64,000 nt of DNA from a virus: the IMG/VR virus record IMGVR_UViG_3300035698_015907, one strand, 5' to 3'. Positions 1,737 through 27,990 of the stretch are shown in pieces (the first letter of the stretch is position 1; each line of letters begins with the position of its first letter). The translations under genes and the position numbers were made by a program. Under the pieces are notes generated by a model. The model did no database searches. It was given only the letters and a program-made list of their open reading frames with translations, and was not told the DNA's origin.

Positions 1737-2804
1737 TTACTCAATATTAAGTGCTTCTTCATAAAGATTTCTTATGAATGCATCTAATTTAATTTTGTCA
1801 ACTGGTGTATCCATATTAGATACATACTTCTTTAGAATAGTCAATGTATCCTGTGCTTCATCAACTAATTCATCTTCTGAAATTCCGTCTAAATTTAGAT
1901 GATCCTCTACTATTTGTATATTTGCGGGATTAGCAGTTTCTATTTTTGCAATAACACTATCAAACAGCCAATTGATAGTTTTATTTTTAATAACGATTTT
2001 AACATAACAACCTTCATAAATGCTTTCATCAAATTTTAGCATTTCATCTTTGTTTTTAGTTGCATCATTATAGAAAAACTTTCTGAAAACTTGATAAGGA
2101 TTTTCAATATATCTTAATTCTCTTGTATCAGTATCAAGTATATGAAATCCTTTAGTATCATCATAATCTGCCCATGTAAATTGACATGGTGCACCTAGAT
2201 AAGAAATGTTGCCAACATTTGATTTATGATGATAATGTCCAGATAAAACCATTTCAAATTTTTGAAATATATTCTTATCCATACCATGTTCCATGATATG
2301 ACCACGATCCATCTCAAAACCAGAAAGCTCGAGATGTCCCATCAGAATTTGTGCTTTAGTACCAGCAATTTCTAAATAAAAATCATTCTGATTATCAGCA
2401 CAAATCCATGGAACTAAACAAATATCTAAACCATCAACATTAATAGTTTCAGCTTTTTCATACAACTTAATATCATATTTAGAATTCTTATATAATGATT
2501 TTATGGCATTATATGAATTAGTATGCTTATATTGAGTATCATGATTGCCGCATAATATATGGAAATCGATGTCCCTATCAAATACCGGGTCCATGAAGTT
2601 GTCATGAAGAACTTTAGCAGTTAGATATTGAATATATTTCCTACGATCAACTAGATCACCTAAATGAATTATAGTCTTTATTTCTTCTTTATCAATAGTC
2701 GGAAAAAATACATTCTCATAAAACTTCTTAAAATATGTATGAAAGTTAGAATTATCATTTCTAACTCCGAAATGTGTATCATTAATAATGGCGATTTTAG
2801 CCAA
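1737..2804 (-). CDS. 47: Recombination nuclease subunit gp47 (Mre11/SbcD-like)
   Basis: Metallophosphoesterase motifs DTHFG, GDLVD, GNHD and SGHYH; adjacent to gene 46; TTG start. Confidence 0.95.
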   Translation of the reverse strand: MAKIAIINDTHFGVRNDNSNFHTYFKKFYENVFFPTIDKEEIKTIIHLGDLVDRRKYIQYLTAKVLHDNFMDPVFDRDIDFHILCGNHDTQYKHTNSYNAIKSLYKNSKYDIKLYEKAETINVDGLDICLVPWICADNQNDFYLEIAGTKAQILMGHLELSGFEMDRGHIMEHGMDKNIFQKFEMVLSGHYHHKSNVGNISYLGAPCQFTWADYDDTKGFHILDTDTRELRYIENPYQVFRKFFYNDATKNKDEMLKFDESIYEGCYVKIVIKNKTINWLFDSVIAKIETANPANIQIVEDHLNLDGISEDELVDEAQDTLTILKKYVSNMDTPVDKIKLDAFIRNLYEEALNIE

Positions 2805-2815
2805 ATTATATAACC

Positions 2816-3358
2816 CTATTCATCAGAATCTTTGAAAAGCTTTTCTACACCTTTCTTATTTTTCTTAGATTCTTTAGCTTTATTATCACGCTTAAGTTTC
2901 ATCTCTTCAAAATTAGAGACTACTTCATTAGCAACTTCATCAATAGCATTTCCTATACTTCTAAATTCTTTATCTCCTGCATATAATTCACCTGATATAT
3001 CCATTCTCTGGTATAACTTATACTTAACATAATTGCTTCTTTTTTCTTTTTCTATTCTGCGCCAAAAAGCCCATGTTGTTATTTGTGTAAAATAAGCAAA
3101 TGGGTTACTTGATTTAGCAGGATCAAAATTATTAGCAGCAACTACACAGTTTTCAATTGCATCATCTTTCATTTCATCAATATAAGAATATCCTGCATAA
3201 CTTGGTTTTCTTGCAAGATTTTCTGCAATAAGAATGAAACATTTTCCTATGTAGTTAGGTAAGATTGGATCTTGTTTGCCTTCTTTCCTAGCTTTAGCGA
3301 CTTTTTCTCGGTGCTTAATAAAAGCTTCGAACATCGCTTTATTATCAATATAATCCAT
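2816..3358 (-). CDS. 55: Late-transcription sigma factor gp55
   Basis: YIDNK, NYIGKCF, NFDP.KSSNPFAYFTQI and AFWRRIEKEK motifs; T4-like position next to gene 47. Confidence 0.93.
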   Translation of the reverse strand: MDYIDNKAMFEAFIKHREKVAKARKEGKQDPILPNYIGKCFILIAENLARKPSYAGYSYIDEMKDDAIENCVVAANNFDPAKSSNPFAYFTQITTWAFWRRIEKEKRSNYVKYKLYQRMDISGELYAGDKEFRSIGNAIDEVANEVVSNFEEMKLKRDNKAKESKKNKKGVEKLFKDSDE

Positions 3359-3921
3359 TAATCTTTAGTATCTTCATCGTCAAATTCATCTATAACATCA
3401 TAATCAGATTCATCTTCATTTAAACGTAAAGTACTTTTTCTTAAATCATTAATGTCTATTTTAGCGTTTTCATCTAACTTTGAAATTGAATTTCTATTAA
3501 AAGCCTTTTTGATAGAACTCATAGACTCTTCATCATTTTCATCAAAACCAGAAATACCTAATAGATCCATTTTAGTTGATATTTTAGAATACATGACATT
3601 TAAATTATCATAAACTTCACACATTTCATCATCAACCGCATACATCGATAATATAGAAGCAGGATTAAATGATACTGGTGTTGCGAGGTCATTATTAAGC
3701 ATTGCATGTTTTGCAAAACTATAACCGTTTCCTCTAGTATCTAGTAAAGTTCTTTTTATCATTTCAAGAGGGTTTACAATAACAGTTGTTTCGCCTGTTT
3801 CATTACCTAGAACTCCTATTATCGTAGAACCAGAATTCAAATTCAATGCTACTACATCACCAACATTAAACATATAAACTGTATTCTTCTTATTTTTATT
3901 CTTCTTTTTCTTGTTAGTCAT
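3358..3921 (-). CDS. Hypothetical protein between uvsW and 55 (beta-rich N-terminus, acidic tail)
   Basis: 187-aa ORF tightly packed between uvsW and 55. Confidence 0.6.
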   Translation of the reverse strand: MTNKKKKNKNKKNTVYMFNVGDVVALNLNSGSTIIGVLGNETGETTVIVNPLEMIKRTLLDTRGNGYSFAKHAMLNNDLATPVSFNPASILSMYAVDDEMCEVYDNLNVMYSKISTKMDLLGISGFDENDEESMSSIKKAFNRNSISKLDENAKIDINDLRKSTLRLNEDESDYDVIDEFDDEDTKD

Positions 3922-3924
3922 AAT

Positions 3925-5400
3925 CTAATCCTTCAGTTTAACGTTATAGATTTTAGGTCTAAATTTTTCTTCAGAATAAGTAATTATTCTTTCAGCAAAA
4001 TGTTTTAGAGTAAAATTTTTCCAAGATTTAGTTGATAAATCATCAGCTATATCAAACAACTCAATTTTAATCTTATCATTTTTTCCTCCCATTCTAAGTC
4101 CTCTACCTATAGATTGTAGAATTCTTATCTTTGACTTAGTTGGAGCAGCCATTATCATATTAAAAATATTCTTGATAGATATTGCGGTCTGAAATGTTCC
4201 ATAAGATACTACTGCTACAATATCATCTTCTTTTTCGATAACAGCACGTATATCATTTCTTATTTCACCATCAACGCCACCGTGTATAAGTATAACTTTC
4301 TTATTAGGAAATTTCTTTTGAATAGTTTCAGCTAATAATTCGCCGTGTCTAATTCTCTGAAAGAATACTAGAGTATTGCCTTTTAATGATCCAGCTAAAT
4401 TTCTTATGAAACGCGTTCTTGCTTCGCAATCTATAAGAAAATCTATTTCTTTATTAATATCTTTCTTAGGTAGTTCCTTTCTATCTTTATCAGTGTGATG
4501 AAGTATAATGCACTTCAAATCGATCTCAGCAACATAGCCTTCATCCATTAGCTTTCTAGTTTTAACTAAATCTCTAACTCTACCAAACAAGCCTTCGAGA
4601 ACCATAGTATTACACTTAGAACCTTTTATAGTTCCAGTGAAACCAAACTTATATGATGCAGAAACTGTTTTTTCCATTAGTTCGATGAAAGTTTTTGCAG
4701 CAAAGTGATGAGCTTCATCACCTATAATAACATCAAATCTTTGAATTGTTGACGTGTTGGTTCTCATTAGAGATTGCCACGTAGAAATTACAATACGTGT
4801 ATCAACATCTTTTTCTTGACTTCCATAAATTTTATGTATATCATCAGCGTGAACACCGTATTCTTCTAGATCTTGTGCCATCTGATGAACAGCAGCAACA
4901 GAGTCTACAACTATTAAAGTCGGTAGACTGTAGTATTCGCATATAGAATGTATTATGAAACTTTTACCAGATGATGTAGGTGACAACATCAAAGATCGAT
5001 TTTTTCTAACGCAATGAGCGAATGCTTCAACTTGGTAATCCCTAAGTTCAAAATCTGGTATTTTGTTCTTAGCTCTTTCAACAAGTACATTCATAAATTC
5101 TCCAGCTTCAGCTAAAGACATTTCAGTGTCAGAAAAATCTACATTATTGAATTCTAGTTCATAATCTCTAGCATCGCAAAAACGTTGCAGTTCTTCTAAC
5201 AAACCAATATACAAAGTTTGTTCTGTTAAGTTAACTAGACGTATTTTTCCATCCCAGACCTTATTACGGACTTTGGGATGAAATTTAGCGCCTTCTATTT
5301 CGAATGTAAAATGTTCTTGTATTTCTCTAAGAATACCTCTATCAGATATTATCTTAAAGAATACTTCATCTACTTTTTCTAATCTTATTGTTTCTGTCAA
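3925..5400 (-). CDS. uvsW: UvsW SF2 DNA helicase
   Basis: WDGKIRL, LRDYQ, SPTSSGKS, DEAH, FTGT and LQSIGRGLR motifs. Confidence 0.96.
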   Translation of the reverse strand: MTETIRLEKVDEVFFKIISDRGILREIQEHFTFEIEGAKFHPKVRNKVWDGKIRLVNLTEQTLYIGLLEELQRFCDARDYELEFNNVDFSDTEMSLAEAGEFMNVLVERAKNKIPDFELRDYQVEAFAHCVRKNRSLMLSPTSSGKSFIIHSICEYYSLPTLIVVDSVAAVHQMAQDLEEYGVHADDIHKIYGSQEKDVDTRIVISTWQSLMRTNTSTIQRFDVIIGDEAHHFAAKTFIELMEKTVSASYKFGFTGTIKGSKCNTMVLEGLFGRVRDLVKTRKLMDEGYVAEIDLKCIILHHTDKDRKELPKKDINKEIDFLIDCEARTRFIRNLAGSLKGNTLVFFQRIRHGELLAETIQKKFPNKKVILIHGGVDGEIRNDIRAVIEKEDDIVAVVSYGTFQTAISIKNIFNMIMAAPTKSKIRILQSIGRGLRMGGKNDKIKIELFDIADDLSTKSWKNFTLKHFAERIITYSEEKFRPKIYNVKLKD

Positions 5401-19244: not shown

Positions 19245-19880
19245 TTATAGTACTGGACTCCAGTTCTTTGCAGAACCATCAACTCCTAGATACTTACCAG
19301 TACCACCAGAACCATTATAGTTCTCATCAGCACCTGGTACCCAATAGTCGTATGCCAAAGTTACCTGGAAAGTCTCAATCTGGTTGGTTGCACCCCAATC
19401 TAGTCTGATTGGTGATACTTCAACCGGGAACATGCCTGAGAAGGTATAAGCTCTAATAGCATCTTCAACATCATTACCAGCTTTTTCTTTAGATAGCTGA
19501 TAAACTGTAGCTACTGACTTATATCCAAGACCCGCAAATTCTGGGTCCTTTTTATTAGAAACATGAGTGTTTATGCCATTAAGCCACGACTCGAAAGCCG
19601 CCTTAATAACGAAGTCTTCGTCGTTGAGGACTTCAATATTCCAGTCTGCGAAGGTTCTATTTCCTTCAAGCTTAACAGTTCTACCGAAATAGTGAACTGG
19701 AACTTGTTCTACTCTAGTTTCTGGTAGAGATGCAGCCTGGGCAAGAAACCTCAGTCTGTTGTTCTCTGCCGTGCCATTAGATGCAAGGGATGGGAACGAA
19801 ACCGAAACTTCGAAAAGAGTTGGTCTCGCACCATCAAACTTGAGACCCTCAGCCCTGAATGCGTTAACGTCGAATGCCAT
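19245..19880 (-). CDS. 19: Tail tube protein gp19
   Basis: GARPTLFEV, AASLP, YFGR.VK..GNRTF.DW, NDEDF and F.VT.AYDYW. Confidence 0.97.
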   Translation of the reverse strand: MAFDVNAFRAEGLKFDGARPTLFEVSVSFPSLASNGTAENNRLRFLAQAASLPETRVEQVPVHYFGRTVKLEGNRTFADWNIEVLNDEDFVIKAAFESWLNGINTHVSNKKDPEFAGLGYKSVATVYQLSKEKAGNDVEDAIRAYTFSGMFPVEVSPIRLDWGATNQIETFQVTLAYDYWVPGADENYNGSGGTGKYLGVDGSAKNWSPVL

Positions 19881-22449: not shown

Positions 22450-22457
22450 TATTTATA
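22450..22457 (-). promoter_or_regulatory. Late promoter for gene 18
   Basis: TATAAATA, then AAGGAG. Confidence 0.88.
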
Positions 22458-22461
22458 CGAG

Positions 22462-25173
22462 CTACGTATTCACTTCTGTCCACAAATCTGGTCCAGATTT
22501 TATAACAGAATCATTGTCGCGGCCCGTGCTTATTATACCAAAAGGAACAACTTCTTCCTCTATAGCATCAGAACCCATTTGATATATGGATTTTACAACG
22601 TCAGTATTTGTTAGGTCTCTAAAATATGGTTGAGAAGATACCCAAGCAAATAATACACAGCACATTACTAGATCATCATTTCCTCTCTCAGCCTCATAGT
22701 GGCCTGTTTTTGTGAGAGAGAAACGAGTTAATTCAGAATAGATATTCAAATCTGATATATCAAGCTGATCAACTTCTATCATAGACTTTAGATTTGCACA
22801 TCCAAGTCTTTTAACTGTTTTAGTAGTCTTAACTCCAAGCTGAGATTTAGACACACCAAATCCAGATGAAATTTCGTGATTTTTGGTTCTCGCAGCAGTC
22901 ATAATGATATTTTCGTATTCTATATCATTATGAAGTATATCTACTACTTGATGTCCTAGATCGTTAGTTTCGATTAATAGCTGAGCATTGTTGAAATATG
23001 TAGCAGCTTCCATTATATACTTCGGATATAGTATAGAGCTTACTGTATTATTCCTAAATGTACATACTACTTTATAAGGAACAGATGATGTATCAAATAC
23101 AACAAATGCAGAATAATCTTGTCCTGAACCATGACTAGTATCAATCACTATCATATAAGAATGTGATCGATCTGCCTGTTCAAAGAATTTGAAACCGTCT
23201 GGTGTCCAATGAATAGGTTCTTTTTGGGTGCCTTCCATCATTGTTAACTTAGAACCAGATATAAGAGTCATTGAAGAACCAAGGAATTCAGTTCCGAATT
23301 CCTGAGCAAAACCTCGTTCAGTCATCAATGCAATTTGCTTCTCCTGCCAAGCATTATCTCTTCCAGGAATCATAGACCAGTGAACTTCTATGGGTTTAAA
23401 TCCATTCCACTCTGGTCGACCATTTTCGTTTGTTTGGCCCTTTTTCTTGGCTTTCGTCCAAATATTATAGAACATATTCATGCCATTTGGTGTAGAAGCT
23501 ATGAATACTTTAGTAGTCTTTCCTGAAGAAATAGTTGGAAAAACTGAGTACCAAAATTCTTCCTGGATATTATCAGGAACAATAGCAAATTCGTCAAGAA
23601 ATACGCAATTATGAACATTAATATCATTAGCTACAAAGCTATTAACATCCTCAACTTCTAATAGATCGTACACATCAGCAAGTCCATTTTGAACTTTTAA
23701 AGCTTCAGAATTTTCAGCTTTTATCCAATTATTATTTTCAAATATAAGATGATCTGGAGTACATACTATAGTTCTACCATCTTTATATGTTAAATGTATA
23801 GTTTCTCTTTTAGATGTAACCTTAATTCCTTCGAATTTTTTGAATCCATCAGCAGTTAAGACGCGTAATTGGCCTTCTTTAAGCTTTTGTTCCAAGGAAT
23901 TCGACCTTTCGCTGCTTCGCTCATTTTTTTCTTTGAAGCTTCTGATCTCTTCGAACCAAGATTCTTTTGCGCTGTTTTCTGTATTTTTTCTGGATTCCGA
24001 TTTATTTTGTTTATATGATCTTCTGTTTTTTTCAGCCCCGTTAATCCATTCGATATATTCTTTCGATTCTCTTCGCTTCTTTTGAATCCTAGAAGTTTTC
24101 CTTTTAGAGAATTTGACATTTTCTTTTTCGATTCTTCTGTATGAATCCTTCCAGTCGCTGATTTCGACATTTTCTTTTTTGTTTCTTCGGTGTGAGTTGT
24201 CCCTAATCTCTGTATGCTCATGGCTTTTGATTGTTCTTGGCGTATAATCATTTTTTGAGCTTCCGTCATTTTCAACATTCTGCCTTGACTGCCAGTCATC
24301 ATTCTGTGTAAAGAAAATGACATCTTCTGATGTATTATTCCTTCCGTCATTTTCATTAAGAGTTTGTGCGCTAACAAGTGTTCTTTTACTGTTAACAGTT
24401 GCATATTCTCTTTTTTGTTCGTTCCACCCAAACATTTCGGGAAGATGTGATGATTTTCCAAATAATATAGCTCTGCTTTTGACCGACTTGGTCTCGATTT
24501 CATCAAATTGAAGTACCATGTCGCGTACTTTCCATTTTTGTACCAAGTCATATAGTTCTCCTATATTCATTTCAACTATATTATCATCTTCATCAGCTAC
24601 TGTTATTTTAGATTTGTATCCAATACAATTGATTGAATATCCTCTTACTGCTGCTGGAGAAGTAGCATTAGATAATATTCTAGAACCATTTTCTAATTCT
24701 ATAGAAGACTTGTTCCATGATACAACACCTTGCTGTAACCATGAAGGCAAAAATTCATATGATATTTTTATTCTATCAACAATTTCAATAGCTGTTGTAT
24801 GTTTGTTAGCAAGAATAGCAGTAGTATAACTTTTATTGAATAATATTGACCATAGAAGATACGCAGATGTTGTTGCAGTCTTTCCTGACTGACGACCAAT
24901 CTTACATATAACATATCTTTCTTCTTCGAAAGATCTTATAATATCTTTCTGCCAATCCCACATCTTGAAAGAAATAATGCCTTCATCAAGAGATATAATC
25001 TTTACATAATTTTCAATAAAGTAAATAGGATCTTTAGCACACTTAACGTATTCTTCAACTTGTTCTAATGTGAATTGAATTCTTACGCTAGGCTTTTTGA
25101 CTTTAAAGTTAGGAGGATAGAAACATTCATCACCTAACTCTTCACTTGGTTTTCCTCTATTATCATTCATCAT
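22462..25173 (-). CDS. 17: Large terminase gp17 containing an intein (563 aa after splicing)
   Basis: KCAKDPIYF, GRQSGKT, Walker B region split as RGYSIN / CVFLDEFA, STPNG, nuclease motifs IDTS.G.GQDYS and NDDLVM. Confidence 0.97.
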   Translation of the reverse strand: MMNDNRGKPSEELGDECFYPPNFKVKKPSVRIQFTLEQVEEYVKCAKDPIYFIENYVKIISLDEGIISFKMWDWQKDIIRSFEEERYVICKIGRQSGKTATTSAYLLWSILFNKSYTTAILANKHTTAIEIVDRIKISYEFLPSWLQQGVVSWNKSSIELENGSRILSNATSPAAVRGYSINCIGYKSKITVADEDDNIVEMNIGELYDLVQKWKVRDMVLQFDEIETKSVKSRAILFGKSSHLPEMFGWNEQKREYATVNSKRTLVSAQTLNENDGRNNTSEDVIFFTQNDDWQSRQNVENDGSSKNDYTPRTIKSHEHTEIRDNSHRRNKKENVEISDWKDSYRRIEKENVKFSKRKTSRIQKKRRESKEYIEWINGAEKNRRSYKQNKSESRKNTENSAKESWFEEIRSFKEKNERSSERSNSLEQKLKEGQLRVLTADGFKKFEGIKVTSKRETIHLTYKDGRTIVCTPDHLIFENNNWIKAENSEALKVQNGLADVYDLLEVEDVNSFVANDINVHNCVFLDEFAIVPDNIQEEFWYSVFPTISSGKTTKVFIASTPNGMNMFYNIWTKAKKKGQTNENGRPEWNGFKPIEVHWSMIPGRDNAWQEKQIALMTERGFAQEFGTEFLGSSMTLISGSKLTMMEGTQKEPIHWTPDGFKFFEQADRSHSYMIVIDTSHGSGQDYSAFVVFDTSSVPYKVVCTFRNNTVSSILYPKYIMEAATYFNNAQLLIETNDLGHQVVDILHNDIEYENIIMTAARTKNHEISSGFGVSKSQLGVKTTKTVKRLGCANLKSMIEVDQLDISDLNIYSELTRFSLTKTGHYEAERGNDDLVMCCVLFAWVSSQPYFRDLTNTDVVKSIYQMGSDAIEEEVVPFGIISTGRDNDSVIKSGPDLWTEVNT
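23608..24627 (-). mobile_element. Intein, 340 aa (gp17 residues 183-522), inserted just before Walker B
   Basis: Block A CIGYKSKI; block B CTPDHLIF; block F DVYDLLEV; block G VANDINVHN followed by Cys+1. Removal restores GYSIN-CVFLDE. Confidence 0.95.
23856..24551 (-). CDS. HNH homing endonuclease with NUMOD3 repeats, nested in the +1 frame inside the intein
   Basis: ENHHIFPKCLGGTN..ENMQLLT.KEH..AH.LL followed by HTEETKKKMS-type repeats; AGGAGA 5 nt before the ATG. Confidence 0.92.
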   Translation of the reverse strand: MTWYKNGKYATWYFNLMKSRPSRSKAELYYLENHHIFPKCLGGTNKKENMQLLTVKEHLLAHKLLMKMTEGIIHQKMSFSLHRMMTGSQGRMLKMTEAQKMIIRQEQSKAMSIQRLGTTHTEETKKKMSKSATGRIHTEESKKKMSNSLKGKLLGFKRSEENRKNISNGLTGLKKTEDHINKINRNPEKIQKTAQKNLGSKRSEASKKKMSEAAKGRIPWNKSLKKANYAS

Positions 25174-27982: not shown

Positions 27983-27990
27983 TATTTATC
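27983..27990 (-). promoter_or_regulatory. Late promoter for gene 13
   Basis: GATAAATA, then AGGAGG. Confidence 0.7.

Follow-up and report, generated by a model that had tools for sequence, protein, structure and literature searches.

What holds a homing endonuclease gene at one place and in one frame inside an intein, and how is it translated when its frame is not that of the host protein? The question is raised by a 64,000-nucleotide stretch of viral DNA, IMG/VR record IMGVR_UViG_3300035698_015907 (hereafter the window), whose large terminase gene contains an intein that in turn contains a nuclease gene in the +1 frame. The initial annotation of this DNA had proposed that the intein codons for I-G-E-L-Y-D also provide the nested nuclease with its ribosome-binding site and start codon and, further, that the motif to which they belong supplies a start in advance and so could fix the position and frame of the nuclease gene. 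Our analysis supports the first proposal, in that these codons probably do serve as Shine-Dalgarno (SD) sequence and start of the nuclease, read from the terminase mRNA, but it does not support the second. The start-site overlap is a small, lineage-specific detail, and the position of the nuclease gene appears better explained by a tolerant loop, the natural break point of atypically split terminase inteins.

The explanation we favor, comprising the intein and its nested nuclease, a local SD and ATG solution, and a loop-set position, has in our estimate a probability of about 0.65. A class-1 intein in the terminase of a T4-like phage would carry a Mob-type HNH-NUMOD3 gene, shifted by +1, in the loop past its first 26 residues, and the terminase frame would cross this gene as a stop-free, disordered linker that leaves the intein able to fold and splice. 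In the window lineage the nuclease gene would abut the N-terminal segment of the intein, and for that reason its SD would come from the I-G-E codons and its ATG from the Y-D codons, with translation by internal initiation on a late polycistronic mRNA that also encodes the terminase. Relatives would instead have a spacer of at least 13 extra codons with a TATAAATA element just before the ATG, usually without an SD, whereas the window, which lacks the spacer, would rely on the SD. The position itself would reflect the tolerance of the loop, and the +1 frame would be locked because any frame-changing insertion or deletion destroys either the essential terminase or the nuclease.

The anatomy of the start is plain. 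On the minus strand, positions 24564-24547 read ATA GGA GAA CTA TAT GAC, which encode I-G-E-L-Y-D in the terminase and intein frame (residues 204-209 of the 903-amino-acid open reading frame [ORF] 22462..25173) at the end of the short N-terminal splicing segment; the wider stretch, AAT ATA GGA GAA CTA TAT GAC TTG, reads N-I-G-E-L-Y-D-L. Read in +1, this stretch becomes TGA ATA TAG GAG AAC TAT ATG ACT, so that an SD-like AGGAGA (24557..24562), whose first two bases lie within the TAG stop at 24563-24561, is followed by the 5-nucleotide spacer ACTAT (24556-24552) and by the nested ATG (24549..24551), made from TAT (Tyr) and the G of GAC (Asp). This ATG, three codons past the TAG and with no other possible start in between, opens an ORF of 231 codons and stands 5 residues ahead of the conserved N-terminal motif N(G)KY-x-WYF, comparable to the starts of the relatives, while the next in-frame ATG is codon 17, past that motif. 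The bases and both translations thus bear out the dual reading, which the initial annotation had placed at 24549-24570, correct to within a few bases. Folding revealed no RNA structure around the start that would sequester the SD (z 0.02).

The host gene (22462..25173, minus strand) is a large terminase gene of the T4 gp17 type, 903 codons long and open throughout, the intein included, with Pfam matches to Terminase_6N (9.6e-13) and Terminase_6C (1.7e-9). Its product shares 46 to 49% identity with terminases of cyanomyoviruses, all of which lack the insert and leave the middle third uncovered; no near-identical phage DNA was found. The class-1 intein comprises 340 codons (23608..24627, minus strand), from Cys1 at 24627-24625 to a terminal ...VHN, and is followed by the +1 Cys of the C-extein at 23607-23605. 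The residues of a class-1 intein are in place, namely Cys183, block B CTPDH (471-475), VYDLLEVED, VHN (520-522) and then Cys523, and T472 and H475 of block B are invariant in the intein family. AlphaFold2 models the intein-frame product with predicted local distance difference test (pLDDT) scores of 76-90 for residues 1-30 and 250-340, and Foldseek matches the model to solved HINT mini-inteins, including 6DSL (Cat; 30% identity), with E values of 3.5e-5 to 1e-3 against 29 solved inteins and a target-normalized template modeling score of up to 0.59. The Pfam Intein_splicing profile stays below threshold (16.7 bits versus a cutoff of 35.8).

Between the two folded parts, intein residues 40-243 (23899..24510, minus strand) are rich in K, R, E, N and S, stop-free and predicted to be disordered, with pLDDT below 50 and no secondary structure. 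The half of the splicing domain that follows the insert (23608..23868, minus strand; LRVLTADGFKKFEGI... block B CTPDH ... VYDLLEVED ... VHN) has as its best sequence match in the PDB 6DSL_B, 'CatC' (E 5.4e-5), aligned from its 'IKVLT'. The insert thus lies about 26 residues past Cys1, ahead of 'LRVLT' and block B and outside the canonical endonuclease slot between blocks B and F, and the intein is part of one uninterrupted 903-codon ORF rather than two polypeptides as in split inteins. Given an essential host gene whose frame selection keeps open, the intein would be expected to splice.

The nested +1 ORF (231 codons; 23856..24551, minus strand) is predicted to encode an intact Mob-type HNH-NUMOD3 homing endonuclease, with an HNH core, three NUMOD3 repeats and a C-terminal KINxNPEKI..K..G.KRS module. 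It occupies the insert almost exactly, its TAA stop overlapping the Val-Leu codons of 'LRVLT' in the intein frame. It matches PHROG 655 (homing endonuclease, 9.8e-31) and, in three stretches, Pfam NUMOD3 (3.8e-14), and it is 30 to 40% identical, over 75 to 85% of the protein, to T4-type free-standing nucleases annotated as mobD or mobE. The HNH residues H34, H35, N49, H58 and H62 are invariant in 14 aligned sequences, and the profile of this alignment matches solved HNH domains in the PDB (E 3.2e-5), although Pfam HNH falls below the cutoff for the single nested sequence (16.2 versus 21.4 bits). The AlphaFold2 model of the nuclease has a mean pLDDT of 75, and Foldseek finds for it local matches to the HNH core only (root mean square deviation of 0.6-1.1 Å over about 36 residues, with E values that are not significant). 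Homing may well be its activity, which would fit the sporadic distribution of the gene and the existence of mini or deleted derivatives (P0010, P0007 and L145).

Selection keeps both frames open. Beyond the insert, a stop interrupts the +1 frame of the terminase about every 35 nt, while across the insert this frame is stop-free for 705 nt and the third frame has 25 stops. When the nuclease protein was held fixed and synonymous codons were shuffled, the intein frame acquired a mean of 13 stops and was open in 0 of 5,000 shuffles; with the intein-frame protein fixed, the nuclease frame had at most one stop in 0.14% of the shuffles (P = 0.0014). A complete out-of-frame nuclease ORF therefore coexists with an intein frame that is open across it beyond chance. 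Across the family, mean identity is 46% in the nuclease frame versus 29.5% for the intein-frame reading of the same DNA. We used protein identity per frame in place of the ratio of nonsynonymous to synonymous substitution rates because the relatives, 30 to 45% identical, are too diverged and their synonymous sites are saturated.

These relatives were sought in several ways. A protein search with the intein region returned terminases of 860-972 amino acids with an insert in the same loop and one of 696 amino acids with a mini-intein, while single-sequence searches of viral contigs with the nuclease and the intein half gave only 33 to 38% identity. The DNA of relatives was obtained by scanning contig collections with degenerate DNA patterns derived from two intein motifs; a metagenome scan returned mostly duplicates of viral loci and chance matches in HypF genes. 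The comparisons that follow rest on 12 distinct lineages, the window included, that have the contiguous long-insert form and a readable 5' junction.

The start signals could be a coincidence, a by-product of peptide and codon usage, with a nuclease that is barely or not translated and either silent or decaying. With the peptide fixed and the codon usage of this phage, I-G-E-L-Y-D yields both AGGAGA and a +1 ATG with a probability of about 0.095, and lineage L165 has AGGAGA at the same codons and does not use it. The window nuclease is, moreover, the shortest in its family and lacks the C-terminal tail of its relatives, and deletion derivatives without an intact nuclease do exist (see below). 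We nevertheless consider coincidence unlikely, since the 231 codons are intact where shuffles expect 5 to 7 stops (P about 0.001), all catalytic residues and modules are kept, and a start anywhere but at this ATG would cost the protein its conserved N terminus. The form of the start is also that of the phage's own genes. In the window a 4-mer SD core (GGAG, GAGG or AGGA at -16..-4) precedes 17 of 56 crudely defined gene starts versus 4.6% of all ATGs. A 6-mer of the AGGAGA class at the same distance precedes just 15 of the 2,639 ATGs (0.57%), and 8 of these 15 open, as first ATG, an ORF of 80 or more amino acids (seven ordinary genes and the nested nuclease); the gene at 19245..19880 has a start identical in form, AGGAGA-N5-ATG. 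A 6-mer SD with an ATG is a specific mark of real starts in this phage.

A second alternative is that an unrecognized internal promoter drives the nuclease and that the SD serves a short, dedicated transcript. The idea draws on the relatives, since 9 of 11 have in their spacer a 7-8/8 match to TATAAATA a few bases ahead of the nuclease ATG, mostly without an SD; the window for its part has a sigma-70-like TTGAAA-18-TATCAT (10/12) at 24788-24759, about 210 nt upstream. The T4 late-promoter consensus, TATAAATA, occurs at six sites on the minus (coding) strand (9656, 10892, 13815, 22457, 34705 and 58573), each just upstream of a gene, and at none on the plus strand of the window, and we conclude from this arrangement that the phage uses T4-type late promoters. 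An AGGAG-type SD often comes next after these exact sites, and the site at 22457 lies 5 nt past the terminase stop codon. Upstream of the nuclease the nearest such element is GATAAATA (27983..27990, minus strand), which heads a tight five-gene block ending with the terminase gene. From 27990 to the nested ATG there is no TATAAATA, one-mismatch variant of it, NATAAATA or TNTAAATA, and the region has no excess of sigma-70-like sites over chance (7 versus 8.7 +/- 3.0 expected). The spacer that bears the promoter-like element in the relatives is itself absent from the window, and a dedicated promoter is thus quite unlikely. The initial annotation had seen no consensus late promoter just upstream, which stands, and had suggested that the nuclease is translated from the late terminase mRNA; with no internal promoter-like site and a plausible SD-led start, transcription as part of the late terminase operon would be the simplest reading.

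The nuclease cassettes of the relatives begin with a stretch conserved as DNA, 81-140 nt past Cys1 (L102, L106, L118, L126, L165 and others), in the order TC(G/A)TCTA(G/A)A, about 10-25 nt, a TATAAATA-like element, about 5-11 nt and ATG. If this element is a T4-type late promoter, the transcript would begin almost at the ATG and be nearly leaderless. The spacer motif TC(G/A)TCTA(G/A)A is found at +81 to +90 from Cys1 in 10 of the 12 lineages; in contiguous forms the terminase frame, offset by one base, reads it as S-S-R. The extein codons T-S-S-S-A of L105, 45 nt before Cys1 (ACT TCG TCT AGT), resemble the spacer motif TCGTCTAGA. This likeness, which is weaker in other loci (the window extein reads ATSPAA), may be a remnant of the target site or due to chance.

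A third alternative is the second proposal of the initial annotation, that the conserved I-x-E-L motif supplies a ribosome-binding site and start in advance and that the nuclease gene is for this reason fixed at its position and in its frame. The motif had been called a common feature just after intein block A and is indeed conserved in the family, as I-x-[ED]-[LF]-[YF]; a Gly at x with a G-initial codon after the Tyr is what gives AGGAGA and ATG at the frequency given above, and the window shows exactly this arrangement. A comparison of related inteins with nested ORFs nevertheless speaks against the proposal. In all 12 lineages the nuclease gene occupies this one loop and is read in +1, with an ORF that spans 234-279 codons, while the +2 frame is nowhere open for more than 60 codons; 11 of the 12 manage this without using the motif. 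AGGAG on the I-G-E codons is found in 2 lineages (the window and L165) and a +1 ATG at the Tyr codon in 2 (the window and L106), so that the two coincide in the window alone. A natural synonymous control is L105, whose identical I-G-E-L-Y is written with GGT and TAC and shows neither signal. The nuclease genes of the relatives start at least 13 codons farther downstream, behind their own TATAAATA-like element, and from the Tyr codon to the conserved nuclease NKY there are 19 nt in the window versus 58-94 nt in the relatives. Where the intein is split, this loop may hold a GIY-YIG nuclease instead, and the junctions there are quite different. Because both signals coincide in a single lineage and the relatives start downstream, the motif does not explain position and frame, and we regard this proposal as very doubtful.

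It is extremely improbable that a fusion protein is made by +1 ribosomal frameshifting or that the insert is removed from RNA as a group I intron, even though the frames overlap for 696 nt and phage HNH-NUMOD3 nucleases are often intron encoded, since the +1 TGA and TAG, 6 and 4 codons ahead of the ATG, leave only GAG AAC TAT with no slippery run, a search with permissive E values found no group I intron or other Rfam family above threshold in the region, the ORF fills the insert and leaves no room for a ribozyme core, and selection keeps open a terminase frame that an intron would not need.

What the family does share is the loop. In L101 and L159 a stop follows the N-terminal intein fragment (IntN), a free-standing nuclease gene comes next, and the C-terminal fragment (IntC) follows, all at this same loop; in L103, L140, L143, L147, L153, L157 and L214 IntN runs in frame into the nuclease and IntC restarts at an overlap. 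In three derivatives without an intact nuclease, L145, P0010 and P0007, the intein frame remains uninterrupted. The contiguous mini form L145 retains the NSSRNT spacer and then jumps to ...EEQRKKINRWEVLT, P0010 has only about 10 codons of the 3' end of the insert left, and P0007 differs from P0003 by the in-frame loss of about 80 internal codons. Since split, fused and nuclease-less forms all occur there, the loop appears to tolerate insertion, read-through and breakage alike. That the frame is always +1 is consistent with common descent, both frames being locked.

Several further observations were made on these loci. The spacer motif also heads the GIY-YIG cassette of the split L101 (L101:360-410, plus strand), where its TAG is the in-frame stop of IntN. 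GIY-YIG nucleases of split forms share a C-terminal module (KINKNPEKI[RK]KTAEKHRGMKRS...) with the HNH nucleases of contiguous forms, as seen in L103 (oriented coordinates 4000-4649), L140, L143, L147, L153, L157, L214 and L101:394-1272, a likeness that points to one DNA-binding or targeting module joined to catalytic domains that have been exchanged. A further intein sits at the Walker A site (RQSGK/C...) of the L103 terminase gene (oriented 1764-4649) and has another HNH ORF (2125-3021) overprinted in a different frame, which brings the out-of-frame nuclease genes of this terminase gene to two. An extra upstream intein ending in ...HRFYTNGILSHN/S is present in L099:2-500 (plus strand) and L104 (oriented 1220-1600), and an extra downstream intein beginning FN/CVSGDTEITVQD... 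in L106 (oriented 3650-3753), so that the number of inteins in a terminase of this group can reach two or three. In L156 and L185 a related split intein occupies a different, more C-terminal terminase site; its short IntN, with the tail ...QEFECISFSSDITIKDTTTGIISNKKIGELHSIL*, again stops directly past I-G-E-L, and no more than about 30 nt separate it from the restart of IntC, a gap that apparently holds no nuclease gene.

Some points weigh against initiation at the nested ATG and against the history that we propose for it. Both signals are cheap given the peptide, L165 leaves the same AGGAGA idle, and an overlap alone is no proof of function. Internal initiation within a translated ORF is usually inefficient. 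In this phage no clear SD precedes 39 of the 56 crude gene starts, and the SD, judged as a purine-rich anti-SD complement 4-9 nt ahead of a start codon, may not match the anti-SD of the host. As for the history, the DNA is so diverged that the MAFFT alignment misplaced the gap and did not resolve the 13-codon difference into a specific deletion. The searches turned up no near relative of the window whose 5' junction can be read; L111/P0004, the nearest one, is truncated. The window arrangement looks like a lineage-specific compaction, although the spacer may have been gained elsewhere rather than lost in the window. It is possible, though short of probable, that the family has two interchangeable expression modes, one with a near-leaderless late promoter, used by most lineages, and one with an SD recruited from splicing-domain codons after loss of the spacer. 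If this were so, nuclease synthesis in the window would be coupled to the terminase mRNA, and the family, its split and fused forms included, would document step-by-step transitions among mini, contiguous-overprinted and atypically split inteins.

Recent papers on such elements ask how out-of-frame homing genes inside inteins are translated (PMC11855218; bioRxiv 10.64898/2026.09.14.751524), and for this question the window offers a clean, testable case: the changes GGA to GGT and TAT to TAC would remove SD and ATG and leave the intein protein unchanged, and both are naturally present in L105. On the favored explanation a tolerant loop, and not a pre-existing start signal, would set the position. 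Terminase inteins employed in protein engineering are naturally split at this loop, and the result bears on how split inteins arise.

Out-of-frame nucleases in inteins are not without precedent. One was proposed for dnaX in 1998, and work from 2025-26 described a dnaX intein with a LAGLIDADG enzyme in the +2 frame, for which putative SD motifs were noted within the intein coding sequence, as well as actinobacteriophage inteins with an EndoVII-like enzyme in 'frame 3'. Like the window, these published cases have a complete gene in another frame of a contiguous intein, an intein-frame stretch that is disordered and need only stay open, and a nuclease frame that is the more conserved of the two; many of them lie in large terminase genes. 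The window differs in that its enzyme is of the Mob-type HNH-NUMOD3 family rather than LAGLIDADG or EndoVII-like, its phage is a T4-like myovirus, its nuclease gene lies between blocks A and B, 26 residues past Cys1, and not in the B-F slot, and its start signals are built on conserved splicing-domain codons. A further case of an out-of-frame HNH gene inside an open host frame is the 'hidden HNH' of ShiLan in a mycobacteriophage methylase (PMC11855218), for which the question of translation was raised explicitly and leaderless initiation at GTG was proposed; ShiLan has no intein and no detectable ribosome-binding site, whereas the window has a clear SD and ATG in a bona fide intein.

The other likenesses are to split inteins and to free-standing nucleases. 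The AceL-TerL and GOS-TerL split inteins have N-fragments of 25-37 residues (PMC11766414), and Cat (PDB 6DSL), of which CatC is the C-fragment, is a consensus of these two atypically split inteins. They share with the window a terminase host, a short N-fragment ending past the same motif and a homologous post-insert half, but they are split, whereas the window intein is contiguous and its frame runs through the nuclease gene instead of stopping. Fractured genes with a nuclease gene in the intein break (Dassa et al. 2009, PMC2677866) have the layout seen in L101 and L159; those published cases are truly split at the canonical endonuclease site, while the window is unsplit and its site is non-canonical. 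The T4-type free-standing mobA-E (mobE, PMC2790892) have the same HNH-plus-NUMOD3 architecture as the nested gene at 30 to 40% identity, and the relatives of the window carry a late-promoter-like element of their own, as free-standing phage homing genes do, but the window gene is overprinted on an intein loop rather than intergenic and is stripped of its own promoter region.

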